64,000 nucleotides of DNA, taken from the NCBI GenBank assembly GCA_963749445.1, contig CAVVMJ010000010.1, positions 117,738 to 181,737 on the forward strand. Direction: 5' to 3'. Below, piece after piece: positions 8,835 to 64,000 of this stretch. This stretch comes from an uncultured bacterium. GTDB taxonomy: Bacteria; Patescibacteriota; Doudnabacteria; UBA920. How positions within the stretch are numbered: the first letter of the stretch is position 1; each line of letters begins with the position of its first letter. The notes under the pieces are model-generated. The model was not told the DNA's origin. It saw only the letters and a program-made list of their open reading frames with translations, and ran no database searches. A program made the position numbers and the translations under genes.

Positions 8835-8950
8835 TAATCGCAAATATACAAATTCAAACAAATATACAAATCCGATGTCGGCTGAATTTCCTGTAAGCTA
8901 TAACTCATGGCTATTTGTATATTTGTGTTGATTTGTATATTTGAGAACAC
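8831..8950. repeat. MITE family 3 copy (GTAGTAATCGCAAATATACAAAT ... ATTTGTATATTTGAGAACACTAC)
   Basis: Palindromic AAATATACAAAT words. A second copy lies at 20319-20440 with the same ends. Confidence 0.7.
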
Positions 8951-10494: not shown

Positions 10495-10497
10495 TAA

Positions 10498-10536
10498 TTT
10501 AAAAATTAAATAAAATTAACAAATTAAATAAAATTT
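10498..10536. repeat. left arm of a palindromic element enclosing the four-helix-bundle gene
   Basis: aaattaaataaaattaacaaatt is the inverted complement of 10903-10945 and identical to the left arm of the hairpin at 63775-63853. Confidence 0.7.
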
Positions 10537-10905: not shown

Positions 10906-10945
10906 TTTTACTTAATTTTATTTAATTTGTAAATTTGTTAATTCT
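10903..10945. repeat. right arm of the same palindromic element
   Basis: taattttacttaattttatttaatttgtaaatttgttaatt. Confidence 0.7.
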
Positions 10946-10948
10946 TTT

Positions 10949-14279: not shown

Positions 14280-14378
14280 TTGATGGGCATCTTCGTGATT
14301 ATCCAATCCTCGACCATAATTAACCGCTACCCGATGGTAATCAATTAGTGCTTGTGGAACCACGAAGATGCCCATCAT
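14280..14378. mobile_element. MITE family 1 copy
   Basis: TTGATGGGCATCTTCG ... CGAAGATGCCCATCA. Confidence 0.8.
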
Positions 14379-14388
14379 TCAATTCTTA

Positions 14389-14651
14389 TGGACAACCTTG
14401 AACAGGAACTTTTAAAAATTCACGACAGAAACCGGCGCGTGGAGCTGGACAAAGCCTGGGAACGCAGCTGGACACGGCGGATAACAATCGCGATTATTAC
14501 CTACATAATCGCTTTGGTTTGGCTAATGCTGATAAAAGAGCCCTTCGCCGCCTGGAAAGCTTTTGTCCCGACCGTGGGATACATTCTATCCACCCTGTAT
14601 TTGCCGTTTGCCAAAACCGCCTGGCTTAAGCATCGCCCAAACCCAAAATAA
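14389..14651 (+). CDS. small membrane protein, hypothetical
   Basis: The ATG lies just outside the MITE. Two TM helices. The longer ORF-track N-terminus is MITE-derived. Confidence 0.5.
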
Positions 14652-14663
14652 TACCAATCCCCG

Positions 14664-14760
14664 CCACACCTTTTTTGCTCGCAAAGCAAAAAAGGTGTGG
14701 CTGTATTTTGTGCCCAAAATACAGTGATTCACTTTTTGACGGCCGTCAAAAAGTGAATCA
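14664..14760. terminator. two hairpin terminators between convergent genes
   Basis: ccacaccttttttgctcgcaaagcaaaaaaggtgtgg and gtgaatcactttttgacggccgtcaaaaagtgaatcac. Confidence 0.65.
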
Positions 14761-17212: not shown

Positions 17213-18158
17213 TTATAATTTTACAATTACCCTTAATTTCCCCGGCTTGCTTCTCGGGTTTTTGTTTATTTCTTCGGCTGATGCAGTAACCGGCTTTTTG
17301 GTTAAAATTTTCCCCCGCGGATTCTTGCCGCAAACGCAATGGGAAAATCCGGCGGACAAACGCATCCTTTACTCAATCCCGAAAAAAATTGTTTAACCAT
17401 CCTGTCTTCCAAAGAATGGAACGAGACCACGGCCAAGCCTGCCCGCCCGGAACCAACAAGTCAAACGCTTTTGGCAAAAATTCTTCCAAACTCTGCAATT
17501 CCTGGTTAACCTCTATCCGTAGCGCCTGAAAAATTCTCCGCGCGTGGTCGTCGGCCTTATGCTTAACCGGTTTCGGCAGCGCGTCTTCTATAATTTGATA
17601 AAAATCAGTTGTATATTTTATTTCTTTTCCCTTATCTCTATTCTCTATAACTTTTTTAGCAATTTGATGGCTGAATTTTTCCTCCCCATAATCTTTAAAT
17701 ATTTTAATCAACTCTTGTTGGTAAATAACTGTTAACAATAACTTCGCGTCCTTAAGCGTTCGGCTTTGGTCAAACCGCATATCCAGCTCTCTTTTTTTTG
17801 GAAGCACATCGCGGCCCGCTTTTCCAGTTCATGGGATGATAACCCCAGATCCGCCACTATCCCGCTGATATTGTAAACTGATGATGTTCAACAGTTCTGT
17901 CTATCTGCGCAAAATTCCCTTGTACAATTTCCACCCTTCTCCCTCTGGGAGAGGGTCAGGGTGAGGGATTTGAAATTCTCAATAGCATCTTGATCCAAAT
18001 CGATCGCTAAAAATTTCCCATCTGGCTTTATCTTTTCCAAAATTGCCGCCGTGTACCCGCCCCCGCCTAATGTCGCGTCAACAAAATTCTTGCCGGCTGA
18101 GGATCCAAAAACCCAATAACCTCATTAAGAAAACCGGAACATGGTTATAATTTATCAT
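17213..18158 (-). pseudogene. rsmH: 16S rRNA m4C1402 methyltransferase RsmH, interrupted by about 7 frameshifts
   Basis: Eight collinear segments in alternating frames: MINYNHVPVFL / LNEVIGFLDPQP / GKNFVDATLGGGGYTAAILEK...SQREK / VEIVQGNF... / GIVADLGLSSHELEK / AGRDVLPKKRELDMRFDQ...FQALRIEVNQ...LLVPGG / [19 protein letters not shown]... / [27 protein letters not shown]. Confidence 0.7.
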
Positions 18159-19575: not shown

Positions 19576-19589
19576 ATCTTGGGCAATAC

Positions 19590-19782
19590 TGCGGAGCCTT
19601 CTCCCCTACATTGATACACATCAAGAACGAGGGGAGATGCCCCGAGTGCATCCGAGGGGCAGAGAGGTGTTTTATTTCCCAGAGCCACCTCTCTGTCACC
19701 GAAAGCGATGTTGTCCTTATGACTTTCGGTGACATCTCCCCTCATGCGCTGTATTGCTCACTAAGGGGAGAAGGCTCCGCGG
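19590..19782. repeat. GC-rich nested palindromic element (gene-less member of the family that carries the DUF559 genes)
   Basis: Outer 17-bp inverted repeat gcggagccttctcccct / aggggagaaggctccgc. Inner repeats gaggggagat/atctcccctc and gcagagaggtg/cacctctctg. Shares ctcggatgcactcgg and the ggctccgcgg end with 48448-48931, 59521-59600 and 3900-3960. Confidence 0.7.
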
Positions 19783-19788
19783 ATGTTC

Positions 19789-20318: not shown

Positions 20319-20440
20319 TAGTAATCCCAAATATACAAATCAACACAAATAAACAAATAACTATCAATCCTTGTGTTTAGCAAAACAGGCGACTGTTACC
20401 GGATTTGTATATTTGTCTAAATTTGTATATTTGCGAACAC
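20319..20440. repeat. MITE family 3 copy
   Basis: gtagtaatcccaaatatacaaat ... atttgtatatttgcgaacactactgtagta. Confidence 0.7.
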
Positions 20441-20859: not shown

Positions 20860-20862
20860 GTC

Positions 20863-20929
20863 TTCTACTAAATACGAAAGAGTCTAAAAATACTAAACTT
20901 GAATTTTCGATTTAGTACTTTTAGTAAAT
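20863..20929. repeat. tactaaatac-family hairpin, split by the IS insertion
   Basis: cttctactaaatacgaaagagtctaaaaatactaaa...tttagtacttttagtaaat; the rest of the right arm (tttagtagag) resumes at 21642. Confidence 0.6.
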
Positions 20930-20936
20930 TTAGTAT

Positions 20937-21634
20937 GGCTCTAGACTAGAAGATTTGTTCTGTTGTAGTCTAAAGATGTGATTAAATGGTCAAAACTGAC
21001 AAAATTTCAATGGGTCAAAGTAAAACACGGTTTTTGTGATGATTTAACTGCGACCCAAACAGCTAAACTTACAGGAATTAATCGCAACACAGTTAACAAG
21101 TACTACAAACTTTTTAGGGAGAAAATCGCCAAACATCAGGAGTCGGTCAGCAATGGGTTCAGCGGCCAGGTAGAGCTGGATAAAAGTTACTTCGGTGGCA
21201 GGAATAAAGGCAGGCGGGGCAGGGGTACAGAGAAGATTCCGGTCTTTGGCATTAAAAGGCGTAACGGTAGAGTCTACACCCAAATTATTAAGAATGCCAG
21301 TAGCGCCGAAATCAGGCCAATTATCAGGGAGTTTGTGAGGAGAGGCAGTATTGTGTATACCGATGGTTGGCGGGCTTACGACGGATTGGTTCTGGATGGC
21401 TACAAACATTTTCGGATTAATCATCGAATTTTTCAGTACTCCGACCGTAAAGGGGCCCACGTTAACGGCATCGAAAACTTTTGGAGCTTTTCCAAACGGC
21501 GGTTGGCAAAGTTTAACGGCATTAATCCTAAAAATTTTTACCTACACCTAAAGGAATGCGAATGGCGCTACAATGAGAAGCCCGATTTGTACAAAAAACT
21601 ATCATTAATTCTTAAAATCTTCTAGGCAAGAGCC
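20937..21634 (+). mobile_element. IS1595-family (IS1016-like) insertion sequence, 698 bp, 20-bp TIRs, 7-bp TSD TTAGTAT
   Basis: Left TIR ggctctagactagaagattt. Right TIR (reverse complement) ggctcttgcctagaagattt. TTAGTAT at 20930-20936 and 21635-21641. Confidence 0.8.
20978..21625 (+). CDS. IS1016-type (IS1595 family) transposase
   Basis: ...LDKSYFGGRNKGRRGRGTEKIPVFGIKRRNGRVYT...VYTDGWRAYDGL...INHRIFQY...HVNGIENFWS... is collinear with IS1016 transposases. GTG start. Confidence 0.85.
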   Translation: MIKWSKLTKFQWVKVKHGFCDDLTATQTAKLTGINRNTVNKYYKLFREKIAKHQESVSNGFSGQVELDKSYFGGRNKGRRGRGTEKIPVFGIKRRNGRVYTQIIKNASSAEIRPIIREFVRRGSIVYTDGWRAYDGLVLDGYKHFRINHRIFQYSDRKGAHVNGIENFWSFSKRRLAKFNGINPKNFYLHLKECEWRYNEKPDLYKKLSLILKIF

Positions 21635-21651
21635 TTAGTATTTAGTAGAGA

Positions 21652-22035: not shown

Positions 22036-22075
22036 AAAATTTTTTGGGTTAAAAATTAAGTTTTAAAAATTTTAT

Positions 22076-22152
22076 TTCCTACGAACCTACGAACCTTTAC
22101 CGAACTACGAACTCACTAGCTTTCGCAGTTCGTACCGTTCGTAAGTTCGTAG
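22076..22152. repeat. ctacgaac-word hairpin (copy 1)
   Basis: cctacgaacctacgaacc...ggttcgtaagttcgtag; a near-identical copy lies at 23835-23909. Confidence 0.75.
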
Positions 22153-22155
22153 AAT

Positions 22156-23823
22156 TTAAGCAATAGGAAGCGAAAAATAAAACGTCGTACCCAAATTTTC
22201 GCCGGCCGACTCGGCCCAAATTTTGCCGCCGTGGGCCTCCACAATGCCGCGGCTGACCACCAGGCCCAGGCCCGTGCCTTTGCGCGAGCGGTCGCCGCTT
22301 TGCAGCTGCTTGAATTTGGAAAACAGCTGGTTTAAGTCTTCGCGGGCCACGCCGATGCCGCTGTCTTTGACCCCGACTACGACCTGCTTTTCGGCAGCGT
22401 CCAGGCTGACATTAACGTCAATTTGCCCGCTGTCGGTATATTTAATGGCATTGCTCAGCAAATTGCCCAAAACCTGGGAAACCCTAACCCTATCAAATTT
22501 TACCATATATTTGTCCGGAGCGGTACACCCAATGGTCAAATGCTTGGCTTCCGCCTGCGGAGCAAAAGCTTTAGCCTGATCCTTAATGACATCCACCAAA
22601 TCATAGACTTGCAAATTCAGCTCAAATTTGCCCGCTTCAATTTTGGCCACGTCCAGCAGGTCATTGACCAGTTCCAGCATATTGTTGGACGCGGTTTCAA
22701 TGGTCATAACCGTGTCTTTGACTTTACCCGGATCCACCCCGGCTTGGCTGGCCGCCAAATTTTTTAGCATTGATTCGGACGACCAGCGCACGGCGGTCAG
22801 CGGCGCGCGCAATTCGTGGACCATCATAGCCGTAAATTCCTGCCGGGTTTTTTCCAGGGTTTTTTCCGTGGTGATGTCGTGGAAAACCACGCTGGCGCCC
22901 AATTTTTCCCCGGCCGAAGTTTTTACCGGCGACACGCCGACTTCCAGGGCTTTATCTTTTAAATAAACTTCCTGGATCAGCATGGGCTTGTCCTCGCTCA
23001 AAGACTGTTCAATTTTGGTGCGGATGTCAACTTTTCCGGACAGACCGTCTACAATGTCAAACATAGTCAATGGTTTGCCGGCAGGCAAACCAAATAATCC
23101 CACGGCCGCGGGGTTATAAACCATTAAGCGGTTATCAATACTGACCATAACCACGCCGTCAGTCAAAGAATAAATAACAGCCGACAGCTTGCCCTTTTCG
23201 TTTTCCAGCACGCTCTGCAGTTTGGATACGGCTGTGGCCGCCTGGTTGGTGATGGCATACAAAATAGAGGCCTGAGCCTCGCCGTAGCGCCCGCGCTCTA
23301 TGGAAGCCACGTTAATCATTCCCACCAGCCGGTTGGAAATTACCACCGGCAGGTTAAAAAACGACTGCACGCCGGCTTTGGAATTATCATCCAAAATATT
23401 GCCGGTAATGCTTTCGTCCAGCTTTTGCGGCTTGACCTCACCGTCCAAAATGGCCGCGAACGACAGCAGCATTTTTTCCTTGACCTGTTCAATGAACTTG
23501 TGGCTCACCGAGCGCTCCACGTGGCATTTGAACACCACTGTGCCGTCTTCGCCCAAAAGCATATAAGCCACGGTGTCGTAATCCAAAAGGTTACCCAAAC
23601 TGCTGGTAATAATATCTATAATTTTGTTGGTGTCCAGAGAATAGCCAATACGCTCGTTGATTTCCTTGAGCACTTCGGCCTGATAAACTTTTTGCTGAAG
23701 TTCCAAGCCCTGGCTGGCTTCCTGGCGCAAATATTTGCGCTCGCGCAAGGACGTGTAAATATAGCCGACAAGCACGACGGCCAGCATGGCAAAATCAATG
23801 GCAAGCAGCAGGTTGAGGATCAT
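22156..23823 (-). CDS. sensor histidine kinase (TM, GAF/PAS, HisKA, HATPase_c)
   Basis: H-box MVHELRAPLTAV; N, G1 and G2 boxes (GTGLGLVVSRGIVEAHGG). Confidence 0.85.
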   Translation of the reverse strand: MILNLLLAIDFAMLAVVLVGYIYTSLRERKYLRQEASQGLELQQKVYQAEVLKEINERIGYSLDTNKIIDIITSSLGNLLDYDTVAYMLLGEDGTVVFKCHVERSVSHKFIEQVKEKMLLSFAAILDGEVKPQKLDESITGNILDDNSKAGVQSFFNLPVVISNRLVGMINVASIERGRYGEAQASILYAITNQAATAVSKLQSVLENEKGKLSAVIYSLTDGVVMVSIDNRLMVYNPAAVGLFGLPAGKPLTMFDIVDGLSGKVDIRTKIEQSLSEDKPMLIQEVYLKDKALEVGVSPVKTSAGEKLGASVVFHDITTEKTLEKTRQEFTAMMVHELRAPLTAVRWSSESMLKNLAASQAGVDPGKVKDTVMTIETASNNMLELVNDLLDVAKIEAGKFELNLQVYDLVDVIKDQAKAFAPQAEAKHLTIGCTAPDKYMVKFDRVRVSQVLGNLLSNAIKYTDSGQIDVNVSLDAAEKQVVVGVKDSGIGVAREDLNQLFSKFKQLQSGDRSRKGTGLGLVVSRGIVEAHGGKIWAESAGENLGTTFYFSLPIA

Positions 23824-23834
23824 TTTGGTTTCAA

Positions 23835-23909
23835 TCCTACGAACATACGAACTTTTCGAACTACGAACTCACAAGCCTTCGTAGTTCGTACCGTTCGTAA
23901 GTTCGTAGG
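23835..23909. repeat. ctacgaac-word hairpin (copy 2)
   Basis: Direct copy of 22076-22152 on the other side of the kinase gene. Confidence 0.75.
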
Positions 23910-23914
23910 AGACG

Positions 23915-24181
23915 TTATAGCCCTTTAAGCGTGGGGTATTTTTCCAGCAAAGTGTTCAAGGTCATTTGCGCGATCTGGCCGGATAAAGCCATGTATTCGT
24001 TGGCCACGCCTTTTAGCACCAGCTGCGGATCGCCGTCCATATCCAAAACCGTGCCGTCGTCAGCCACCTTTAACCCCGGAATCTTCCTGGCCTTGTCCAG
24101 GGCAATGTTCGGCCCCAGCACCACCATTTGCTTTTGGATTAAATCGGTCAGCATTTGTTTATATTCTGTTTCGTTGGCCAT
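23915..24181 (-). CDS. hypothetical protein
   Basis: 88-aa ORF; no recognisable family. Confidence 0.4.
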   Translation of the reverse strand: MANETEYKQMLTDLIQKQMVVLGPNIALDKARKIPGLKVADDGTVLDMDGDPQLVLKGVANEYMALSGQIAQMTLNTLLEKYPTLKGL

Positions 24182-24234
24182 AAAATTCCTTATTTCGATA
24201 AATGATAATTTTAGATGGTTATATTATAACACAC

Positions 24235-24321
24235 TTCTACTAAATACTAAAACCACTAAAAATACGAAACCCGAAATTAATCAGCTTTAGTATTTTTAGT
24301 TTCTTTCGTATTTAGTAGAAG
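24235..24321. repeat. tactaaatac-word hairpin (intact)
   Basis: cttctactaaatactaaaaccactaaaaatacgaaa...tttcgtatttagtagaag. Confidence 0.7.
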
Positions 24322-25834: not shown

Positions 25835-25837
25835 AAC

Positions 25838-25893
25838 AATTTACGATTAACGATTAACAGTACCAAAGGTTAATTGTCAATTGTTAATCGTTA
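25838..25893. repeat. caattgttaatcgttaa-word hairpin (gene-less form of the element around four-helix-bundle copy 2)
   Basis: acgattaacgattaacag taccaaagg ttaattgtcaattgttaatcgt. Confidence 0.7.
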
Positions 25894-26008
25894 AAAGTTA
25901 TTCGTATTCTAATAGTATACGATTGTTCACCTTTTATCAACCCTAAGTTATCCACACTCCTTTGCCAAGGCTTCAGAGTGCAAGCAAATAAAAAACGCGC
26001 GCCGTGGA

Positions 26009-27452: not shown

Positions 27453-27474
27453 CTTGGATTGATGTTGATGGGCA

Positions 27475-27563
27475 CCTTCGAGGGGTAGTTTAGTTAGCGA
27501 TGATGGATGCGCTGAACCGCAAACATCCGATAACTTTTATAGCCGCCCGAAGGTGCCCATCAA
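27475..27563. mobile_element. MITE family 1 copy
   Basis: TTGATGGGCACCTTCG ... CGAAGGTGCCCATCAA. Confidence 0.8.
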
Positions 27564-28248: not shown

Positions 28249-29256
28249 CTACCTCGCGCTCAAAATACTTTTTTTGTAACTGTCCAAGTTGTCCAAAGCC
28301 ACGCCCGTGCCTTTGGCTACACAGAGGAGCGGCTGTTCGGCAACGAAACAGGAGACGCCCACGCTTTGCGCGATGTAGTGGTCAAGGTTGCGCAGCAAAG
28401 CGCTGCCGCCAGTCATAACCATGCCTTTATCGATGATATCCGAAGCCAGTTCCGGCGGCGTGTCCTGGAGCACGGTTTTAACGGCCCTGACTATTTCCTT
28501 TAATTCATCATGGATGGCTTCCACGACTTCGTTGGTGGTGACGGTAACGGTTTTGGGCAGGCCGGAAACCATATCACGGCCCTTAATTTCCATAACTTCC
28601 TCTTCGGGCACGGCCAGGGCGCTGCCGATGGTGATTTTGATTTCTTCGGCCGTGCGGTCGCCGATGGCAATGCTGTGCTTTTTGCGGACAAAGTCGATGA
28701 TAGCCTGGTCAAAACGGTTGCCGGCCACGCGCACCGAAGTGGAGTTGACAATCCCGCCAAGCGACAGTACGGCCACGTCCGTGGTGCCGCCGCCAATGTC
28801 GATGATTAAATTCCCCGAAGCCGAAGCAATCGGGATGCCGGCGCCAATGGCCGCGGCCACGGTTTCTTTGATTACATACGCGGCCTTGGCGCCGGCCGCC
28901 ATGGCCGCGTCCACCACGGCCCGCCGTTCGGTGGAAGTAATGCCGCCGGGAACGCTAATCATGACCTCGGGCCGGAAAAACCTAATGTTGCCCAAAGCTT
29001 TATTAATAAAATAACGCAGCATGGCTTCGGTCACGCGGTAATCGGCAATCACGCCGTCCTTCATCGGCCGACTGGCCACAATGGTTTCCGGCGTGCGCCC
29101 GAGCATTTCCTTGGCTTCCTGGCCCACGGCCAAAACGCGGTTATCGTCAAGCGAAATCGCCACCACGGTCGGCTCGTTAATAATTATTCCCCGCTTGGGC
29201 AAATAAACCAAAGTGTTGGCCGTGCCCAGGTCTATCCCGATTTTGTTCTGAAACAT
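28249..29256 (-). CDS. mreB: rod-shape-determining actin homolog MreB
   Basis: MFQNKIGIDLGTANTLVY...; the ORF-track N-terminal extension (QLQLQLQL) is read-through of the aattgt repeat. Confidence 0.85.
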   Translation of the reverse strand: MFQNKIGIDLGTANTLVYLPKRGIIINEPTVVAISLDDNRVLAVGQEAKEMLGRTPETIVASRPMKDGVIADYRVTEAMLRYFINKALGNIRFFRPEVMISVPGGITSTERRAVVDAAMAAGAKAAYVIKETVAAAIGAGIPIASASGNLIIDIGGGTTDVAVLSLGGIVNSTSVRVAGNRFDQAIIDFVRKKHSIAIGDRTAEEIKITIGSALAVPEEEVMEIKGRDMVSGLPKTVTVTTNEVVEAIHDELKEIVRAVKTVLQDTPPELASDIIDKGMVMTGGSALLRNLDHYIAQSVGVSCFVAEQPLLCVAKGTGVALDNLDSYKKSILSAR

Positions 29257-29258
29257 GA

Positions 29259-29331
29259 ATAATTGTAATTGTAATTGTAATTGTAATTGGTTATTAGTTG
29301 TAGCGGCCGGTTTAGTCATTAGTTATTAGGC
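29259..29331. repeat. aattgt-word palindrome
   Basis: aattgtaattgtaattgtaattgtaattggttattagttgtagcggccggtttagtcattagttattagg. Confidence 0.6.
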
Positions 29332-34923: not shown

Positions 34924-34940
34924 GTCAAAGACTCTTCCTG

Positions 34941-35024
34941 TCTTTACTAACTACTAATCTTTACGAATATACTAATGTCGGCAAACTTATTCGTATATTA
35001 GTATTGATTGTAGTCAGTAAAGAC
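34941..35024. repeat. tactaat/cgtata-word palindrome
   Basis: tctttactaactactaatctttacgaatatactaatg...ttattcgtatattagtattgattgtagtcagtaaaga. Confidence 0.65.
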
Positions 35025-35026
35025 AA

Positions 35027-37576: not shown

Positions 37577-38801
37577 CTATTTCAACGCCTCAATGCCCGG
37601 CAATTTTTTGCCGGCCAGGTATTCCAGCATGGCGCCGCCGCCGGTGGAGACGTGGTCGATGTTTTCAAATTGGTGCGCCTGACGGACGGCGTCAACCGTG
37701 TCTCCGCCGCCGACCACGACAAACGCGCGGCCCTTGCCGCGGCCGCCGATGAGCCGCGCCAACGCCATAGTGGCGTGGTGAAAAGGCCTGACTTCAAACC
37801 GTCCTAAGGGGCCGCTCCACAAAATGGTTTTGGCTTTTTTGATTTCCTGGGCGAACGCCAAAATGGTTTTTGGGCCCGCGTCCAAAACCTGTTCTTTTTT
37901 GCCGATGTCATAAGGCGTAGCCACGCGGATGGTGTCTTTGTCCATTTTCTCATCCACCACCACCACGTCCAGCGGCAACATTAACTTGTCCTTATAATTC
38001 TTTTCAATTTCCCAGGCAACCTTTAGCTTCGCCTTCCTCAATTTTGGACAAACCGATCTCCAAACCTTTAGATTTAAACATCAAATTGGCCACTCCCCCG
38101 CCCACCAAAATTTTGTCCGCTTTTTTGCCCAAATTTTCCAATGCCCCGACTTTTTCCGAAAGCTTGATGCCGCCCGTCATCACCACAAACGGATGCTTAA
38201 CGCTTTTAAGCATCATATCCAAAGATTTGATTTCTTTTTCCAAAAGCAAACCGCAATAGCTATCCAAATACTTAGTCACGCCGACCGTGGACGCGGCCGC
38301 ACGATGGTCCACGCCGAACGCGTCATTAACGTAAACATCGGCAAAACTCGCCAATTTTTTGGCAAAAACCGGATCGTCTTTTTCTTCGCCTTCGTAAAAC
38401 CGTAAATTCTCCAGCAAAATAATGTCTTTGGCCGGCGCCATCCCAAGCTGCTCCTGATGTTTTTCTTCCAGAATATTTCCGGTATAAAAAATAAAATGGT
38501 TAATTTGGTATTCCGGCAGCTTATGGTCAGTCTCCAAAAATTTATAGCCCAGCATCTCAGCCATCAATTTGGCCACGGGCTCTAAACTAAATTGCGGGTC
38601 TTTTTTGCCCTTTGGCCGCCCCAAATGCCCGCAAACAATTACCGTATTGCCTGCTGCATGCAAATGTTTAATAGTCGGAATAATTTGCTCAATCCTAAAA
38701 GCGTCGTTAACCTTGCCATTATCAATCGGCACGTTTACGTCCACGCGCAGCAGGACGGTTTTATTTTGGATTTTGGATGTTCGCAAATATTTTATAGCCA
38801 T
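37577..38801 (-). CDS. pgk: phosphoglycerate kinase, reading frame broken by a 1-nt insertion near 38020
   Basis: N-terminal part MAIKYLRTSKIQNKTVLLRVDVNVP... ends at ...IEEGEAK and continues in the -1 frame as VAWEIEKNYKDKLMLPLDVVVV...GGGAMLEYL; context gaagctaaaggttgcc. Confidence 0.8.
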
Positions 38802-40311: not shown

Positions 40312-40410
40312 TTGATGGGCATCTTCGGGCGGCTATAATCATCAGCCGATATTTATTGGCCGACGCATCAATCATAACCTACTAAACCACAACCTCGAAG
40401 ATGCCCATCA
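40312..40410. mobile_element. MITE family 1 copy
   Basis: TTGATGGGCATCTTCG ... CGAAGATGCCCATCAA (perfect 16-bp TIR). Confidence 0.85.
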
Positions 40411-40416
40411 ATACAT

Positions 40417-41443: not shown

Positions 41444-41490
41444 ATTAGTGAATTAGAGAGTTTACGTTCTAATTCTCTAATTCTCTATTT
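41444..41490. repeat. gtgaattag-word hairpin
   Basis: gttagtgaattagtgaattagagag...ctctaattctctaatt; related copy at 62613-62684. Confidence 0.65.
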
Positions 41491-41503
41491 TTCTTTTTAC
41501 TGA

Positions 41504-43633: not shown

Positions 43634-43653
43634 TTTGGTATTTACGCTGTTTA

Positions 43654-44242
43654 CCAGTCCCCTCCTGGAACAGGAGGGGTGTCACCCGAAGGGTGACGGG
43701 GTGGTAGACACTATTTGAGATGACTTTTAATTTCTTCAATAATTCCGTTTAGATTATTCAAAACATCTTTATTCTGAAATCTGATGATTTTTATATTCTG
43801 ACTTTGTATAAATTCCGTCCGTTTTTGATCGTAATCGTAGGCTTCAGAACTGTCATGCGTACCGCCATCCAGTTCAATGCCCAGACGCTCATTAGGACAG
43901 TAAAAATCAAGAGAATATTGACCAACACCATATTGTCTCCTAAATTTTTTGCCGAGTTTGGACCCTTTCAATTCCCTCCATAAGATAATTTCCGGCAGAC
44001 CGAGGTTATTTCTAAGTTTCTTGCGTAAATCTTTGCGGCTGACATTGTTATATAAAAAGTCCATCTGTCTGCCGTTATTAGGGCTATACGCGGAGCATTC
44101 TCCTCCTATTTCAGGAATATCATCAGAATATAGGAGGGGTGCCCCGCCTTTGGCGGGACGGGGCGGTAATTTTATGAATTGCTGATGTCTACCACCTCCC
44201 CCCGCTTCGCGGGGTACTCCTCCTGTTCCAGGAGGAGACTAC
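43654..44242. mobile_element. GC-rich TIR element carrying DUF559 endonuclease gene (copy 1)
   Basis: Left end ccagtcccctcctggaacaggaggggtgtcacccgaagggtgacggggtgg. Right end ccacctccccccgcttcgcggggtactcctcctgttccaggaggagactact. Terminal inverted repeat tc.cctcctggaacaggagg. Confidence 0.7.
43711..44064 (-). CDS. DUF559 (Vsr-like restriction-endonuclease-fold) protein
   Basis: ...LWRELKG...FRRQYGVGQYSLDFYCPNERLGIELDGGTHD...IIRFQNKDV... is the PF04480 pattern. Confidence 0.75.
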   Translation of the reverse strand: MDFLYNNVSRKDLRKKLRNNLGLPEIILWRELKGSKLGKKFRRQYGVGQYSLDFYCPNERLGIELDGGTHDSSEAYDYDQKRTEFIQSQNIKIIRFQNKDVLNNLNGIIEEIKSHLK

Positions 44243-45250: not shown

Positions 45251-45258
45251 AAATAATG

Positions 45259-45360
45259 CGATACCAATATACTAATGCATGCGAATGATACGAATAATAC
45301 CAATCTTAAATCGTATTCGTATTATTTGTATCATTAGTACCATTCGTATATTAGTATCAT
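45259..45360. repeat. tacgaata/ctaatg-word palindrome
   Basis: ataccaatatactaatgcatgcgaatgatacgaataatacc...tcgtattcgtattatttgtatcattagtaccattcgtatattagtatcat. Confidence 0.65.
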
Positions 45361-45812: not shown

Positions 45813-45893
45813 GTTAGCGTTTAGCGTTTAGCGTTTAGCGTTTAGCAGTCCACTGTGTGGCTAAATGCTAATCGCTAATTGCTAACTGCTAAT
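45813..45893. repeat. ttagcg-word palindrome
   Basis: gttagcgtttagcgtttagcgtttagcag tccactgtgtgg ctaaatgctaatcgctaattgctaactgctaa; a related copy lies at 63270-63362. Confidence 0.7.
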
Positions 45894-48447: not shown

Positions 48448-48931
48448 TCCGCGGAGCCTCCCCTCCTGCCAAGGAGGGGTGTCACCCGAAGGGTGACGGG
48501 GTGGTTGGAGTTTGCTAAAAATGCTTCCTGATTTCCATAAGCACTCCCTCAATATTATTTATAATGTCTTTATTTTCAAACCTGATAACTTTTATTCCTT
48601 TTCCGTTTATATAACCAGTCCTAATTTGGTCGTTTTGGTATCCTTGCCCCGTGTCATGCGGCGAACCGTCCAGTTCCACAGCCAATTTTTTTCCAGAACA
48701 ATAAAAATCCAAAATATAATTTCCTACACTATGCTGTCTTCTAAACTTTTCCCCCGGCTGGCTGTTTTTTAAATAAGACCAGGGCCTGGCTTCGGCGGGA
48801 GTAAGGCTCTTACGCAGCTGTTTACGATTATTTTTGAGTCCAATCAGATTATTTAATCGCTTGGTCATGCTCCAACCACCTCCCCCGCTTCGCGGGGTAC
48901 TCCTCCTCTGCAAGGAGGAGAGGCTCCGCGG
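48448..48931. mobile_element. GC-rich TIR element carrying DUF559 endonuclease gene (copy 2)
   Basis: Left end ccgcggagcctcccctcctgccaaggaggggtgtcacccgaagggtgacggggtggttgg. Right end ccaaccacctcccccgcttcgcggggtactcctcctctgcaaggaggagaggctccgcgg (~30-bp TIR). The internal block ggaggggtgtcacccgaagggtgacggggtgg is identical to copy 1. Confidence 0.75.
48515..48868 (-). CDS. DUF559 (Vsr-like endonuclease-fold) protein, copy 2
   Basis: MTKRLNNLIG...ARPWSYLKNSQPGEKFRRQHSVGNYILDFYCSGKKLAVELDGSPHD...VIRFENKDI...; the ORF-track N-terminal extension is the translated TIR. Confidence 0.7.
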   Translation of the reverse strand: MTKRLNNLIGLKNNRKQLRKSLTPAEARPWSYLKNSQPGEKFRRQHSVGNYILDFYCSGKKLAVELDGSPHDTGQGYQNDQIRTGYINGKGIKVIRFENKDIINNIEGVLMEIRKHF

Positions 48932-48937
48932 CAACTC

Positions 48938-50352: not shown

Positions 50353-50452
50353 ATTGATGGGTATCTTCGTGGTTCCACAATCCTCAGCCGATATCTATCC
50401 GATAACGACAAGTAAAGGTCGAGGGATGTGTTGGCAAGAAGATGCCCATCAA
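50353..50452. mobile_element. MITE family 1 copy
   Basis: TTGATGGGTATCTTCG ... GAAGATGCCCATCAA. Confidence 0.8.
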
Positions 50453-58760: not shown

Positions 58761-58914
58761 GAAATCTTAATTTCCTAATGTTTATTATATCACAAACCAC
58801 CCATATAACCAAATATTATAGGCCTTTTTGGGCTTTTTGTCAACTCTGTGTGGGCCACAATCTCTGGTGTGTCATCCCGGCCTCCGAGCCGGAATCCAGA
58901 ATGACGCTTTTACC

Positions 58915-58975
58915 TGGATCCCGGATATTTTTTGCGGCTCACGATGTGCGTCTACACAAAAAATTCCGGGATGAC
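58915..58975. repeat. hairpin direct repeat B (ggatcccggatatttttt...aaaaaattccgggatgaca)
   Basis: A near-identical direct copy at 59409-59467 lies on the other side of the zincin gene. Confidence 0.7.
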
Positions 58976-59015
58976 ATTAGTGTCAAGGGTCACCCTTGAC
59001 ACTACTTGACACTAA

Positions 59016-59381: not shown

Positions 59382-59408
59382 ACATAAGTCCTTTTTTCAG
59401 GATCCCGG

Positions 59409-59467
59409 ATATTTTTTCGACTGACGATATTCCCAAACGAAAAAATTCCGGGATGACAATTTATACA
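59409..59467. repeat. hairpin direct repeat B'
   Basis: ggatcccggatattttttcgactgacgatattcccaaacgaaaaaattccgggatgaca. Confidence 0.7.
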
Positions 59468-59520
59468 AATTGTCATTTTAAAACCTGCCGGTATTATGGC
59501 AGGTTTGGAGGGAAATGGGA

Positions 59521-59730
59521 ATGCTGATGTTTCGACCTCTCTGTCCCTCGGATGCACTCGGGACATCTCCCCTCGCCAGGGGAGAAAGGCTCCGCGGTTC
59601 CGCGTCTTTCCGCGTAGTAATCAGCGACCGTTCAGCGGAACTAGCGCCCTCACCCGCCCCTCGGATGCACTCGGGGCACCCTCTCCCCGCCTGCTGGCGT
59701 GGCGAGGGGAAATAAGATATTCGCTTCAGC
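59521..59730. repeat. GC-rich element fragments (half-copy of the 19590-19782 element plus ctcggatgcactcgg modules)
   Basis: ctctgtccctcggatgcactcgggacatctcccctcgccaggggagaaaggctccgcgg matches the right half of 19590-19782. Confidence 0.6.
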
Positions 59731-59735
59731 GAATA

Positions 59736-61028
59736 CTAAAACCCTTCATAATCATGCATCGTCAACTGCGCTTCAATCTTTTTGATAACTTCAATAACCA
59801 CCGACACCACAATCAACAGGCCGGTGCCGCCAAAGGTTAGGGCCTGGGTGCCGGTGTAGTTTTGCATCAGCAACGGCAAAATGGCAATCAGGGCCAAAAA
59901 GAACGCGCCGGCCAGGGTGATGCGGTTTAAAACTTTGGACAGAAATTCCGCGGTCTGGGCGCCCGGGCGAAGGCCGGGGACAAAGCCGCCGTTTTTTTGA
60001 ACGTTTTCGGCAATTTCGTCCGGGTTAAATACCACCGCGGTATAAAAATAAGTAAAGGCCATAACCAGCAAAAAATACGCGGCCATATAAAACCAGCCCT
60101 GGTTGTTAAACAGGCTGATGGTTTTTTGCGCGATTTGGGAAAGCAGTACCGACTTGGCGCCCACGAAAAATTGCGCGATTAATGCTGGAAACATCATTAC
60201 CGAAATGGCAAAAATAATCGGGATGACGCCGGCCTGGTTAAGCCGCAAAGGAAGATGCGTGTTGACGCCGCCGAACAGCTTATTGCCGCGCACGCGCTTG
60301 GCGTAGGCAATAGGCACGTTGCGCTGGGCTTCGGTAACCAGCACCACGCCCGCGACCACAATCAAAATCACGGCCAAAAAGGCAATGACCGTGGGCAGTT
60401 TGGTCGGGTCATACCACTGCTGCAAAAAACCAAAACTGTTGGGCAGGCGCGCCACAATGCCGGCAAAAATGATTAAGGACGTACCGTTGCCCACGTCAAA
60501 CTCCGACATAATTTCGCCCAGCCACATCATCAGCATGGTGCCGCAAGTCACGGACAATAAAGTAATGAACCACTGAAACGGCGTAAAAACACCGAGTAAA
60601 TTGGCGCCGCCGGTCAGACTGCTGCCCTGCTGCAGCAGACGGATAGTGCCGAACGACTGCAAAACGGCCAGCGGAATGGTCAAATAGCGCGTGTACTGGT
60701 TGAGCTGGGCGCGGCCGGCCTCGCCGCCTTCTTTTTGCATTTCGGCAAACGACGGTACCACAATGGTCAACAGCTGCATCACGATGGACGCGGTAATGTA
60801 CGGGCCCACGCCGAGCATGGCAATGGAAAAATACGACAGTCCCCCGCCGGAAAAAATATCCAATAAATTAAAAAACTGGCTCTGCTGGAAAAACGATTTT
60901 AATTTGCTGGCGTCAATGCCGGGGATCGGCACATGGGCCAGGACGCGGGTCAACAGCAAAAGACCCAGCACGATGAGAATCTTGTTGCGTAAATCTTTAG
61001 TTTTCCAGATGAGGAAGAATTTGTTCAT
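59736..61028 (-). CDS. secY: preprotein translocase subunit SecY
   Basis: 10-TM protein, ...GGGLSYFSIAMLGVGPYITASI... Confidence 0.9.
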   Translation of the reverse strand: MNKFFLIWKTKDLRNKILIVLGLLLLTRVLAHVPIPGIDASKLKSFFQQSQFFNLLDIFSGGGLSYFSIAMLGVGPYITASIVMQLLTIVVPSFAEMQKEGGEAGRAQLNQYTRYLTIPLAVLQSFGTIRLLQQGSSLTGGANLLGVFTPFQWFITLLSVTCGTMLMMWLGEIMSEFDVGNGTSLIIFAGIVARLPNSFGFLQQWYDPTKLPTVIAFLAVILIVVAGVVLVTEAQRNVPIAYAKRVRGNKLFGGVNTHLPLRLNQAGVIPIIFAISVMMFPALIAQFFVGAKSVLLSQIAQKTISLFNNQGWFYMAAYFLLVMAFTYFYTAVVFNPDEIAENVQKNGGFVPGLRPGAQTAEFLSKVLNRITLAGAFFLALIAILPLLMQNYTGTQALTFGGTGLLIVVSVVIEVIKKIEAQLTMHDYEGF

Positions 61029-61133
61029 CCGCCAAAATTTTTAGTAAATAATCAACAAGCTTATTAAACCCATCCGTCTAAAATATATTATAGCTGATAA
61101 TAAAACTTTATAAAAATTTAGGCGGATAAATAT
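61029..61133. repeat. intergenic hairpin in the r-protein operon (secY-rplO spacer)
   Basis: ccgccaaaatttttag...taaaaatttaggcgg. Confidence 0.55.
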
Positions 61134-61568
61134 CTAAATTACCTTCCCGCCCAACTTCTCCACTACTGCGCGGACTGATTTTGAAGTAGGGAGCTTGATA
61201 ATCAGTTTTTTCTTGAGTCCGCCGCCTAAAATTTTAACCTTTACAGCGCTAATGTCAACAATTTTTTTGTCGCGCAACGCTTTTAAGTCAACCGTCGCGC
61301 CATCGGCAAAGGCCGACAACCGGCTCAAGGAAACCGGCGTGGCTTTATCCGATAAAGCGCGGAAACCGCGCAGCTTGGGCAATTGCCTGACTAACGGCTG
61401 GCGGCCGCCTTCAAACTGGGCCGGCATTTTGCTGTGGCCGGTACGGGCCGTCTGGCCCTTGCCGCCGCGCGTGCTGTATGTGCCGTGGCCTGAGCCAAGT
61501 CCCCTACCGACAACTTTACGCCGGTGCATGGATTTGGGATTTTTATGGAGATTATGTAATTTCAGCAT
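61134..61568 (-). CDS. rplO: 50S ribosomal protein L15
   Basis: ...RRKVVGRGLGSGHGTYSTRGGKGQ... Confidence 0.9.
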   Translation of the reverse strand: MLKLHNLHKNPKSMHRRKVVGRGLGSGHGTYSTRGGKGQTARTGHSKMPAQFEGGRQPLVRQLPKLRGFRALSDKATPVSLSRLSAFADGATVDLKALRDKKIVDISAVKVKILGGGLKKKLIIKLPTSKSVRAVVEKLGGKVI

Positions 61569-61665
61569 ATAACCTGCTACCTATTTCTACTATATTTCCA
61601 TATATTTCTATCTTATTTCTGAAACACGATGGAAATAAAATAGAAATAAAGTTGAAACACAGTTG
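61569..61665. repeat. atttct-word palindrome (rplO-rpsE spacer)
   Basis: tatttctactatatttccatatatttctatcttatttct gaaacacg atggaaataaaatagaaataaagttgaaa. Confidence 0.65.
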
Positions 61666-62172
61666 TTACTTTCTCATCTCAGATAATTCTTTCTTGCTCT
61701 TCATCTGCGAAAAAGCCAAAAACACGGCTTTAACGTTATTAACTTTATTATTAGAGCCGAGCATTTTGGAGACCACGTTTCTCACGCCGGCCAAATCCAT
61801 CACGCTGCGCACGGCTCCGCCGGCAATGACGCCGCTGCCGGGCTTGGCCGGCTTAAGCATTAAGCTGGAAGATTTATATTTAACCAAAAGCTGATGCGGG
61901 ATGGTGTCGTTGACCAAAGGCAGGGTAACCATATTCTTTTTGGCCGCGTTAACCGCTTTGTTGACGCTCTCGGCCACGTCCGCGCCTTTTTTTAGGCCCA
62001 TACCGACTTTGCCTTTGTGGTCGCCAATAACCACCAAAGCGCGGAAACGCATGCGCTTGCCGCCAGCGACCACGCGGGTGACGCGCTTGACTTCCACGAC
62101 TTTTTGGTCAAATTCATTGCGTTCGCGCTGGGCGTCGCCTTCCTGTCTTGATTGTCGTCTTCGTTTTTCCAT
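61666..62172 (-). CDS. rpsE: 30S ribosomal protein S5 (no L30 gene follows)
   Basis: ...VVKVTRVVAGGKRMRFRALVVIGD... Confidence 0.9.
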   Translation of the reverse strand: MEKRRRQSRQEGDAQRERNEFDQKVVEVKRVTRVVAGGKRMRFRALVVIGDHKGKVGMGLKKGADVAESVNKAVNAAKKNMVTLPLVNDTIPHQLLVKYKSSSLMLKPAKPGSGVIAGGAVRSVMDLAGVRNVVSKMLGSNNKVNNVKAVFLAFSQMKSKKELSEMRK

Positions 62173-62258
62173 ATATTAGTTAGTAGTCAGTAGTGAGTAG
62201 ATAGTAGCCAGCAGCTGTTTGGCTACTTACTACTAACTACTTACTACCTGCTAATTGA
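62173..62258. repeat. tactaact-word palindrome (rpsE-rplR spacer)
   Basis: ttagttagtagtcagtagtgagtagatagtagccagcagctgtttggctacttactactaactacttactacc. Confidence 0.65.
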
Positions 62259-62612
62259 TTAGAACTTTAACCCACCCTCGCGTGCGCCTTCAGCCAAAGC
62301 CTTGACGCGGCCGTGGTAAGCAAAACCGCCGCGGTCAAACACCGCGCTGGCGATTTTTTTCTCCCCGGCTTTTTTTGCCAGCAACTTGCCGGTTTCCATC
62401 GCCAAACTAACCTTCTTGCCTTTGGATTTGATTTCCGAACTGGAAACCGCGGCCAAAGTCTTGCCCGCTTCGTCATCAATCAGCTGAGCGTAAATATGTC
62501 GGTTGGCGCGGTAAACCGAAAGGCGCGGGCGCTTCGCTGTGCCGCTGACCACAGACCGGACGCGGTTGTGCCTAATTGAGCGCTTAATTCGTTTGGCTTT
62601 GTGTTGATTCAT
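62259..62612 (-). CDS. rplR: 50S ribosomal protein L18
   Basis: [19 protein letters not shown]... Confidence 0.9.
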
Positions 62613-62684
62613 AAAAATAGTGAATTAGTGATTTAGAGAATTAGCGAACTAGTTTTCTAATTCTCTAGTTCTCTAATTTTCTTG
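62613..62684. repeat. gtgaattag-word palindrome (rplR-rplF spacer)
   Basis: gtgaattagtgatttagagaattagcgaactagttttctaattctctagttctctaatt. Confidence 0.65.
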
Positions 62685-63269
62685 CTACTTACCGCCTCCC
62701 ACAACCTTAACCACTTTCCCCGCTTTGCGGCGCACGACTTCATCGGAATACTTAATTCCTTTACCTTTGTACGGTTCCGGCTTTTTAAGCTCGCGGACAT
62801 TGGCTGCAAACTGGCCGACTTTTTGCTTGTCCGCGCCGAAAATGCTGATGGTATTTTTGTCAACCGCAATGGTCAGATCCTTGGGTACCTCAACCACCAC
62901 GGGATGGGAAAAGCCCAAAGACATCGTGAGTTTGCCGGGAGTCGCGGCAACCTTAAAACCCACGCCGATAACTTCCAACTTCTTTTCATAGCCTTTGGTA
63001 ACCCCGTCCACCATATTCTGGATCAAAGAGCGGAACAGCCCCCACAAGGCGCGCTCTTTTTTAACGTCCTGTTTTTGCACGCCGATCAAAACTTCCTTTT
63101 CGCCCACGCTGACGGAAACGTCCGGATGAATGGCCAAAGTCAAAACGCCCTTGGGGCCGGTGACGGTTAAAGTCTCTTCTTTTCCGGCGGAGCCGGATCC
63201 CGCTCCGCGGGACTTTTCTACCTTCACGCCGGAAGGAATGATGACTGGTTTTTTTCCTATTCTGCTCAT
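62685..63269 (-). CDS. rplF: 50S ribosomal protein L6
   Basis: MSRIGKKPVIIPSGVKV... Confidence 0.9.
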   Translation of the reverse strand: MSRIGKKPVIIPSGVKVEKSRGAGSGSAGKEETLTVTGPKGVLTLAIHPDVSVSVGEKEVLIGVQKQDVKKERALWGLFRSLIQNMVDGVTKGYEKKLEVIGVGFKVAATPGKLTMSLGFSHPVVVEVPKDLTIAVDKNTISIFGADKQKVGQFAANVRELKKPEPYKGKGIKYSDEVVRRKAGKVVKVVGGGK

Positions 63270-63362
63270 ATGTTACTAGCGTTTAGCTTTTAGCAGTTAG
63301 CGTTTAGCCACACACGAATGCCTGGCTAAATGCTAAATGCTAATGGCTAACCGCTTAATTAA
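63270..63362. repeat. ttagcg-word palindrome (rplF-rpsH spacer)
   Basis: ctagcgtttagcttttagcagttagcgtttagcc...ggctaaatgctaaatgctaatggctaaccgctta. Confidence 0.65.
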
Positions 63363-63755
63363 TTACCAAACCTGGCACACAACCTCTCCCCCGACTTTTT
63401 CCTTGCGCGCCTGCCGGTCGGTCAAAAGGCCTTTGGATGTGGACACGACGGTTAATCCCAAACCGCTGTTGGTGCGGGGAATCCTCTCCGCCGGCAAATA
63501 AATCCGCTGGCCGGGTTTGCTCACGCGCTTAATGTCGGAAATCACCGGCTGCCCGCTTGGGTCGTATTTCAAATTAATCTGCAGGGTCTTTAACCGGCCG
63601 GGCACCTCGGACACGCTGCCCACAAAACCCTCCTTTTCCAAAAGCTTGGCCAAACTGGCTTTGAATTTGGAATACGGCAAAACCGCAGCCTCTTTGCGGG
63701 CCTGTGCTGCGTTCTTGATGCGGATTATCATGTCGGCGATGGGGTCGGTGTACAT
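63363..63755 (-). CDS. rpsH: 30S ribosomal protein S8
   Basis: MYTDPIADMIIRIKNA... Confidence 0.9.
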   Translation of the reverse strand: MYTDPIADMIIRIKNAAQARKEAAVLPYSKFKASLAKLLEKEGFVGSVSEVPGRLKTLQINLKYDPSGQPVISDIKRVSKPGQRIYLPAERIPRTNSGLGLTVVSTSKGLLTDRQARKEKVGGEVVCQVW

Positions 63756-63774
63756 AATAGATTGAACAAAATTT

Positions 63775-63853
63775 TTAAATTAAATAAAATTAACAAATTG
63801 GCTGCAAAAAATTTTATTTAATTTTACTTAATTTGTAAATTTTATTTAATTCC
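63775..63853. repeat. aaattaaataaaattaacaaatt palindrome (rpsH-rpsZ spacer), gene-less form of the element around four-helix-bundle gene 10537..10905
   Basis: aaattaaataaaattaacaaatt ggctgcaaaaaatt ttatttaattttacttaatttgtaaatttt; both arms match 10498-10536 and 10903-10945. Confidence 0.7.
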
Positions 63854-64000
63854 TTACCACGAAGCTTTTGATACTCCCGGAATTTCCCCTTTGCTGGCCA
63901 ACTCCCGAAAACAAATCCTGCACAAATCAAAATCGCGCATATAACCGGCTTTGCGACCGCATTTCCAACAGCGCCGGGTCTTCCGCGTGGAAAATTTGGC
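63854..64000 (-). CDS. rpsZ: 30S ribosomal protein S14 type Z (zinc ribbon), 5' end outside window
   Basis: ...[47 protein letters not shown]. Confidence 0.8.

Follow-up and report, generated by a model that had tools for sequence, protein, structure and literature searches.

Tandem-word hairpins occupy the gene junctions of a ribosomal protein operon in a Candidate Phyla Radiation lineage

The 64,000-nt stretch of contig CAVVMJ010000010.1 analysed here (the window) carries at its 3' end a ribosomal protein (r-protein) operon in which nearly every intergenic spacer holds an imperfect hairpin assembled from its own short repeated words. Such elements arose in or invaded one lineage of the Candidate Phyla Radiation (CPR, or Patescibacteria; ultrasmall bacteria) and now occupy ~87% of its r-protein junctions. 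They are replaced rapidly, and their families spread preferentially within a genome. Moreover, one hairpin family occurs in two forms, as solo hairpins and with a PF05635 gene inside the loop. We regard it as probable, if by a narrow measure, that the spacer hairpins are selfish elements resembling the cyanobacterial STRR elements (short tandemly repeated repetitive) and the intervening sequences (IVS) of rRNA genes, with arms that form inverted arrays of 7-nt (sometimes 8-10-nt) words and stems that are probably cut by RNase III.

All operon genes lie on the minus strand: secY (59736-61028), rplO (61134-61568), rpsE (61666-62172), rplR (62259-62612), rplF (62685-63269), rpsH (63363-63755) and rpsZ, of which only the start is in the window (from 63857). 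rpmD is missing between rpsE and rplO, as is typical in the CPR. Because of this lack, and because the nearest relatives are labelled Patescibacteria, we assign the host to the CPR. From rplO-secY to rpsZ-rpsH, the spacers measure 105, 97, 86, 72, 93 and 101 nt. As the earlier note on this DNA had assumed, r-protein genes usually lie closer together elsewhere, with a median spacer of 17 nt over 236 junctions of non-CPR genomes. The spacer RNAs were folded in sense orientation and compared with 200 dinucleotide shuffles each, the control that the earlier note had named. Five of the six (rpsZ-rpsH to rpsE-rplO) form long imperfect hairpins more stable than their shuffles (z -3.1 to -6.8; -18 to -41.5 kcal/mol), and rplO-secY is marginal. 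The palindrome that the earlier note had seen in each operon spacer is thus confirmed for five junctions and not for rplO-secY (z -2.2), which is not word-built. Folding with DNA parameters gives the same picture as RNA parameters. In a repeat search, the inverted-repeat arms of the operon spacers span 28-36 nt at 81-85% complementarity. The loops of the six operon hairpins are 4-16 nt long and contain no open reading frame (ORF).

The most stable hairpin, in the rpsH-rplF spacer (63270-63362, minus strand like all of these; -41.5 kcal/mol, z -6.8), pairs TTAGC-NN heptamers with GCTAA-NN heptamers. AGTAGT-N heptamers build the rplR-rpsE hairpin (62173-62258; -37.0 kcal/mol, z -6.0; inverted repeat of 36 nt at 81%), and ATTTCTA-type words form the 37 pairs of the rpsE-rplO hairpin (61569-61665; -28.0 kcal/mol, z -5.7). 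The rplF-rplR hairpin consists of GAATTAG-N words (62613-62684; -18.2 kcal/mol, z -4.9; inverted repeat of 28 nt at 82%). Words of the AAATTAAAT/AAAATTAAC type make up the rpsZ-rpsH hairpin (63756-63856; -18.2 kcal/mol, z -3.1), which contains two inverted repeats, one of 33 nt (85%) and one of 22 nt (95%).

The sixth spacer, rplO-secY (61029-61133, minus strand; -21.2 kcal/mol), has a weak 20-nt outer inverted repeat that encloses a 67-nt interior. This interior contains GCTATAATATAT, which is conserved and resembles a promoter (TTTATA-16-TATAAT; match at 61114-61087, minus strand), and the TATAAT core is the sole conserved part of the spacer in L171 and L173, two relatives of ~80% nucleotide identity. 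A AAACCTGCCATAATANNGGCAGGTTTTAAA hairpin downstream of secY is conserved and also present in these two relatives. In an independent Logan assembly (L172), 4 kb that include three operon spacers match at 99.98% identity; the spacer sequence is therefore real and not an assembly artefact. Across the whole window, Rfam at gathering thresholds matches tRNA only and no rRNA, so that no known RNA family covers the spacers.

The word-built character of the hairpins is measurable. The best self-repeat period was determined for 131 hairpin arms, taken from the window and from relatives: it is 7 nt in 53 of them, 8 in 25, 9 in 15 and 10 in 14, and the mean identity at shift 7 is 0.44 compared to 0.29 in shuffled arms. 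Because the arms are tandem words, the stems consist of 5-6-bp helices with 1-2-nt mismatches at the variable word linkers. Within the TTAGC family, a covariation check finds the cores invariant and the variation confined to the unpaired linkers. The placement of the stems is precise: in 58 co-directional hairpins, the median distance is 6 nt from the stop codon to the stem and 12 nt from the stem to the next ATG, with medians of 25.5 pairs and a 6-nt loop. Purine-rich arms show a modest orientation bias, lying on the 5' side in 38 hairpins and on the 3' side in 17 (p = 0.016), and a search for a conserved loop motif across 66 hairpins found none. Shine-Dalgarno-like motifs precede only 9 of the 63 window ORFs, and starts follow AU-rich tails (ATTT, ATAT, TTTT); translation initiation in this organism thus appears to be Shine-Dalgarno-independent.

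A metagenome scan with S5 yielded a graded series of relatives, in which we define the clade by S5 identity of at least 77% (~30 contigs) and the sister group by 65-75%. The samples behind L081-L114 and L172 were from peat, soil and groundwater. The clade contributes 119 non-redundant junctions between rpsH and secY with a median spacer of 91 nt, and 87% of them are at least 60 nt long. For the 72 sister-group junctions, the median is 12 nt and 7% reach 60 nt. Over all co-directional junctions in the same loci, the medians are 83 nt in the clade vs 10 nt in the sister group. The comparison with relatives that the earlier note had called for hence finds spacers that are likewise long throughout the clade, 62% of the long ones with z < -3. 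The spacers are compact in the nearest relative among GTDB species representatives, whose SecY is 67% identical. Several other CPR genomes (Moraniibacteria, Buchananbacteria and two labelled Saccharibacteria) also have hairpins built from words, or tandem repeats, in the same operon, and none were found in the r-protein operon of ~60 non-CPR genomes. In clade members and the sister group alike, nothing but an AU-rich tail (ATTT, TTAT or the like) remains at empty junctions. In the literature, we found no description of intergenic hairpins, palindromes or inverted repeats between protein genes of CPR bacteria.

While occupancy is conserved, the hairpin sequences are not, and the orthologous junctions of relatives carry hairpins of unrelated words. 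Between contigs, only 9 of 1138 orthologous spacer pairs (0.8%) are detectably similar, as are 28 of 4586 non-orthologous pairs (0.6%). In contrast, 13 of 162 junction pairs on the same contig (8%) share a family, which indicates propagation within the genome. The clearest case is L108, in which one 105-nt hairpin is present in three copies of at least 95% identity at three junctions of one operon. The window itself contains five copy pairs at 91-97% identity in blastn (8835/20331, 22036/23824, 45813/63270, 34924/45251 and 41467/62613). The second copy of the rplF-rplR family of GAATTAG-N words lies at 41467-41495. Window families are common to relatives at non-orthologous sites: AGTAGT-N arms like those of rplR-rpsE occur at other sites in L099 and L105, and the TTAGC/GCTAA family recurs at the rplO-secY junction of L081 as well as at the orthologous rpsH-rplF junction of L087. 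Further, spacers in L087, L097, L098 and L106 are nested, with shared outer arms and different interiors. An active hairpin-generating mechanism, as proposed in the earlier note, is consequently supported in a modified form, namely as the spread of families within a genome.

The link to PF05635, the four-helix-bundle 23S rRNA intervening-sequence protein also called S23p, is provided by a locus on the plus strand of the window (10495-10948). Here, the loop of a word-built hairpin holds a PF05635 gene (10537-10905; Pfam E 1.8e-14); the hairpin arms (10495-10536 and 10906-10948) abut the gene's start and stop codons and form a duplex with z -4.4. The gene is located between glgA and a GH57 gene and is co-oriented with them. 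The rpsZ-rpsH hairpin of the r-protein operon is 94% identical in blastn to these arms (10504-10535 and 10904-10936); since it belongs to the same arm family and has a short loop, it represents a solo copy of them. PF05635 genes in four further CPR contexts (hyp|traG, TP_methylase|yebC, smpB|PLD and pilB|pilC), which with the window make five independent ones, are likewise co-oriented in operons and have inverted word repeats on both sides (duplex z -3.2 to -7.5). One of these loci also has a solo copy in an rpmI-rplT spacer. No PF05635 homologues were found in 160 r-protein loci.

The association extends beyond the CPR. In a tblastn search of plasmids, PF05635 genes were found mostly in Nostocales, the classical STRR hosts. 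All 12 non-CPR plasmid genes inspected are flanked by tandem short-word arrays, in most cases with clear 7-nt units; ~9 of the genes have inverted arrays, two have direct ones (Treponema, Bernardetia) and one has weak ones (Pseudanabaena). In N. punctiforme, (GTCGGAG)x4 faces (CGACYTC)x5 across the gene (z -9.7), and in N. flagelliforme (TAATTCG)x4 faces (TTACGAA)x4 (z -11.6). Flanking of PF05635 genes by heptamer arrays thus spans CPR, cyanobacteria, Chloroflexota and Treponema. Two plasmids from unrelated phyla, Gloeocapsa pGLO7428.03 (L194) and a Chlorohelix plasmid (L197), both carry the gene between DUF1156 and Swt1-family HEPN genes and flanked by TCTAAAA-type heptamers. On plasmids of Pseudanabaena and Anabaena cylindrica (L200, L201), the PF05635 gene lies directly beside cas1 or between cas2 and cas1. 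We found no literature that links S23p/PF05635 genes to inverted repeats, mobility or heptamer arrays.

The hairpins are not confined to the r-protein operon. The implied framing of this operon as a special place for them is wrong, as they are a property of the genome and of the lineage. Among ~40 window spacers of 40-300 nt, 27 (about two thirds) have z < -3, and 12 of the 15 longest inverted repeats are intergenic, although the window is 83% coding. Of the other sites that the earlier note had listed as related hairpins, those at 22076, 23835, 24235, 34941, 41444, 45259 and 45813 are hairpins, and the one at 29259 is a direct (ACAATT)x5 array (z +1.6). The rpiB-tpiA spacer (45813-45888, minus strand; z -6.0) contains the second TTAGC/GCTAA heptamer hairpin, as a family alignment indicates. 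A hairpin of ACGAAC words (22036-22155, minus strand; z -6.7) has its partner copy at 23824-23930 (z -7.6), and the GAF/PAS histidine-kinase gene at 22156-23823 is bracketed by both complete hairpins (blastn 91% over 76 nt). ACTAAAT words build the hairpin at 24234-24321 (minus strand; z -9.3; inverted repeat of 41 nt at 83%), of which a second full copy lies at 20861-20957. The eno-gpmI spacer (34924-35026, minus strand) forms 37 pairs from ACTAATATACGAAT words (z -6.4); it has a related copy at 45251-45356, and its family recurs at r-protein junctions of L089 and L102 (blastn 95-97%). On the plus strand, a hairpin of ACAAATAT words occupies 8835-8940 (z -5.1) with a second copy at 20331-20436 (z -5.6). 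The arms of these two copies are conserved between them and in L098, and the loops differ.

Other repeats in the window depart from this pattern. Direct-only arrays without an inverted partner are formed by (ACAATT)x5 before mreB (29255-29290) and by (TTAATCG)x3 before the second glgA, upstream of 12816; as a hairpin, the TTAATCG word occurs at 25836-25905. Three near-perfect hairpins follow one another where genes converge (14652-14760; z -11.6); they are unlike the word-built kind and may be bidirectional terminators. The GC-rich, long structured spacers 19576-19788, 59382-59735 and 58761-59015 share segments, with 95% identity between 19628-19668 and 59535-59575.

Several known systems resemble these elements in part. 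STRR hairpins of 7-bp repeats are located between hupS and hupL in several cyanobacteria, where a role in transcript stability or translational coupling has been proposed (PMC2670836). Tandem units of ~7 bp, a hairpin between cistrons of one operon and several words per genome are common to STRRs and the elements described here, and the PF05635 genes on Nostoc, Planktothrix and Dolichospermum plasmids lie between such arrays. In contrast to STRRs, the host is a CPR bacterium rather than a heterocystous cyanobacterium and the words are AT-rich (TTAGCNN, AGTAGTN, GAATTAGN, ATTTCTA, AAATTAAAT). Moreover, nearly every junction of the most conserved operon is occupied, with another word family at almost each site. 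The IVS in the 23S rRNA gene of Coxiella has a 28-bp terminal stem, heptameric repeats whose number varies among strains and an S23p ORF in its loop; RNase III excises it, and it counts as a selfish element whose means of movement is unknown (PMC4990558). rRNA genes of CPR bacteria also hold IVS-type insertions, some with a 23S_rRNA_IVP gene (PMC11270868). Terminal inverted repeats, a stem of 20-30 bp (here a median of 25.5 pairs, in Coxiella 28 bp) and heptameric arms connect our elements to IVSs. A PF05635 ORF in the loop is found at 10495-10948, a locus with exactly the IVS architecture, and not in the six operon hairpins, of which one (63756-63856) is of the same arm family. However, IVSs reside in helices 25/45 of the 23S rRNA gene (Coxiella, Leptospira, Salmonella), whereas the elements here lie between protein-coding genes and most are solo stems without an ORF. 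Excision by RNase III is known for IVSs and would apply here by analogy.

The likeness to other systems is looser. In Xanthomonas, intergenic tandem GGGAATC heptamers form convergent pairs able to fold into stem-loops in 70-75 cases, and the repeat type is conserved between species at variable length (PMC4692102). There, one G-rich word with G-quadruplex potential is used genome-wide, whereas many AT-rich words without such potential are used here. REP, BIME and REPIN elements are also intergenic imperfect palindromes, often in operons, that spread within genomes, and REPs stabilise upstream mRNA. They form one or few high-copy consensus families with a RAYT transposase, in contrast to the dozens of low-copy families with tandem-word substructure found here. 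In the early region of phage T7, imperfect hairpins lie between cistrons, and RNase III cleavage leaves a stabilising 3' stem; these sites were reportedly described by Dunn and Studier in 1973 (cited in PMC4990558). One imperfect hairpin per cistron gap of a polycistronic RNA is an arrangement that would work alike in both. The T7 sites are conserved functional signals, whereas our elements are repeat-built and rapidly replaced, with cleavage suggested by analogy only.

Taking these likenesses together with the copy distribution, we propose the following course of events. A diverse population of small hairpin elements fills the spacers; they lie right past the stop codon and preserve ~12 nt of ancestral AU-rich tail ahead of the next ATG. 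Their arms would grow and diverge by slippage of 7-nt units, and propagation would proceed by copying or replacement at the DNA level, with recognition of structure rather than of a shared sequence. In the polycistronic transcript, each element would fold as an imperfect double-stranded stem of ~25 bp, which RNase III may cut as it does in IVSs and at the intercistronic sites of T7. This would divide the operon RNA into cistrons whose 3' ends are capped by stems and whose AU-rich leaders are short. Such splitting would be tolerable because the organism does not use Shine-Dalgarno sequences. The RNA processing or insulation suggested in the earlier note would be a reasonable consequence of a ~25-bp stem that begins 6 nt past a stop codon and stops 12 nt short of the next ATG, by analogy with the rRNA IVSs that RNase III excises (PMC4990558).

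A number of results weigh against selfish, RNase III-processed elements of this kind. In 81 of 103 spacers, folding is better for the antisense than for the sense strand (median z in the clade -3.99 vs -3.60), while the long spacers of non-CPR operons have a sense advantage (-2.78 vs -2.37 for antisense). Because antisense folds slightly better, the RNA structure does not look tuned on the transcribed strand. The window contains no rnc gene, and gene calls in the relatives are ORF-based. Of the six operon hairpins, just one is linked to a copy that bears PF05635. Further, searches for a terminal motif in common, a target-site duplication or a dedicated mobilising enzyme found none, for which reason the argument for mobility has to be carried by the copy distribution. 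Finally, near-saturating occupancy of one element per junction is easier to explain by a benefit to the host than by purely selfish spread.

This last point leads to a different explanation, in which the hairpins are RNA elements selected in place by the host (for processing, stability, insulation or stop-start coupling) and their similarity stems from convergence or gene conversion. It would account for an occupancy of 87% with a narrow size mode of 75-105 nt, kept across ~30 relatives despite complete sequence turnover, and for the constant position 6 nt past the stop and 12 nt before the ATG. The purine-rich arm bias (38 5' vs 17 3', p = 0.016) and the role proposed for STRR hairpins in transcript stability or translational coupling (PMC2670836) also agree with it. 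However, the sister lineage and most of the CPR manage with 1-30-nt spacers, a sense-strand folding advantage as in non-CPR long spacers is missing, and hairpins also lie beside non-operon genes all over the window. Moreover, copies of 90-97% identity at unrelated junctions, as well as gene-carrying copies, are hard to obtain by convergence. We therefore consider host selection rather unlikely. The elements could also be a mutational by-product of a repair-poor lineage, in which slippage makes the tandem 7-mers and intrastrand template switching the inverted arm, all locally at AT-rich junctions and without movement. Direct-only arrays agree with such a process and do occur ((ACAATT)x5 at ~29260, (TTAATCG)x3 upstream of 12816 and GTCTGTAAA x14 in L008), as do short, half-decayed word runs at short junctions (L091, L111). 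In addition, heptamer copy number differs among Coxiella strains, and some words resemble the preceding ...AAGTAA gene end. What makes this origin improbable are the near-identical 75-105-nt copies, loops included, at different junctions, the 10-fold higher family sharing within a contig than between orthologous sites, and the same arm family accompanying PF05635 genes in three organisms.

The hairpins might instead be classical MITEs (miniature inverted-repeat transposable elements), that is, fused terminal inverted repeats of DDE transposons (e.g. of the IS1595 family) mobilised in trans. The window does contain an IS1595-family (ISXO2-like) transposase gene (20978-21625) flanked by inverted repeats (20931-20957 and 21615-21640), and the full copy of hairpin 24234-24321 at 20861-20957 directly precedes it within the region 20861-21651. 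For this hairpin family, a MITE origin appears plausible from the sequence, and it is the only one whose ends resemble the IS1595-like unit. Dispersed near-identical copies (three at ≥95% in L108; window pairs at 91-97%) would fit as well, and another, distinct family of ~100 bp, with TTGATGGGCATCTTCG as its 16-nt ends and five full copies, resembles a MITE in its behaviour. Yet no terminal motif is common to the six operon hairpins or shared by them with insertion-sequence ends, no target-site duplication is evident around the L108 copies, and dozens of unrelated arms would need dozens of transposases in a ~1 Mb genome. As a general explanation, MITEs are thus quite improbable. Most improbable among these explanations are intrinsic terminators or attenuators that would turn every r-protein gene into its own transcription unit. 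Stable stem-loops directly past stop codons, and perfect GC-rich terminator-like hairpins elsewhere (e.g. 14652-14760), would suit such a role. Nevertheless, U-tracts are lacking after the stems, which are AT-rich with periodic mismatches; terminator-like matches stay at the level of the shuffles (11 vs 8.4 expected), and none lies in the six spacers. Promoter-like matches occur in two spacers only, and a 12-nt tail is too short for a promoter.

Intrinsic terminators, attC sites, TIGR arrays and REP/REPIN elements make up the rejected ALTERNATIVES. Integron attC core sites (R'' RYYYAAC / R' GTTRRRY) are present in none of the six spacers and none of 66 clade hairpins. TIGR arrays consist of 36-nt units beside a Nop-domain Tas gene (PMC12045711), whereas the elements here are single dispersed hairpins with a 7-10-nt period, and no Nop-domain match was found among the window ORFs scanned. 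REP/REPIN elements are set aside because a hairpin family is represented by 1-3 copies within the 64 kb, and the families are unrelated to one another rather than variants of one consensus; a Pfam scan of 58 window ORFs gave no match to a RAYT (IS200/IS605-like Y1) transposase.

The ~100-bp family mentioned above has terminal inverted repeats of 16 nt, TTGATGGGCATCTTCG ... CGAAGATGCCCATCAA, and lies at 8339-8438, 14280-14378, 27465-27563, 40312-40411 and 50354-50452, with a lone end at 3994-4009. Its 11 matches compare with 0.09 expected by chance, and it looks like a classical MITE. The copy at 14280-14378 overlaps a probably spurious ORF (14352-14651). Two small DUF559 genes (Vsr-like endonuclease, PF04480; 43711-44064 and 48515-48934) are wedged among housekeeping genes, one after tkt and one between an htrA-like gene and ruvX. 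They sit in hairpin loops, as GC-rich inverted repeats flank them (regions 43634-44242 and 48472-48934), and on sequence grounds are taken as a second kind of gene-in-hairpin cassette. Among the remaining window genes, a tRNA gene (1147-1218; Rfam 63 bits) lies inside the called ORF 948-1385, which has no Pfam match and is probably spurious. Phosphoglycerate kinase (37577-38801) is split into the overlapping ORFs 38004-38801 (Pfam positions 4-236) and 37577-38041 (236-379), and the MraW ORF at 17373-17807 covers just positions 119-235 of 309; both reflect a frameshift, a pseudogene or a sequencing error.

The feature is a CPR variant of the STRR/IVS-type tandem-heptamer hairpin, remarkable for nearly saturating the r-protein operon, and the cross-phylum association of PF05635 genes with heptamer arrays is newly seen. 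For more than 30 years, STRR hairpins and rRNA IVSs have been on record, to our knowledge with neither a mechanism nor a link to one another. That PF05635 genes consistently lie between heptamer arrays, be it in CPR, Cyanobacteria, Chloroflexota, Spirochaetes or the Coxiella IVS, suggests a common biology for three separately described phenomena. More speculatively, and in our view doubtfully, PF05635 (S23p/Avd-like) proteins and tandem-heptamer arrays could form one unrecognised, phylum-spanning system that has saturated the operon junctions of the present CPR lineage and subjects its r-protein mRNAs to RNase III processing. The PF05635 protein may then be a trans-acting factor that recognises, propagates or homes into heptamer hairpins, or the hairpin may be the vehicle of the gene. 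If so, cyanobacterial STRRs, rRNA IVSs and the intercistronic hairpins of the CPR would be the same kind of element, and the hairpin vehicle would let a PF05635 gene ride inside host operons and rRNA. The lineage represents a natural extreme next to a compact sister lineage, by which the cost, benefit and origin of the hairpins can be tested comparatively. The hairpins can also be used as fast-evolving strain markers. For CPR genomics, operon prediction from intergenic distance, estimates of coding density and assumptions of translational coupling will fail in such lineages.

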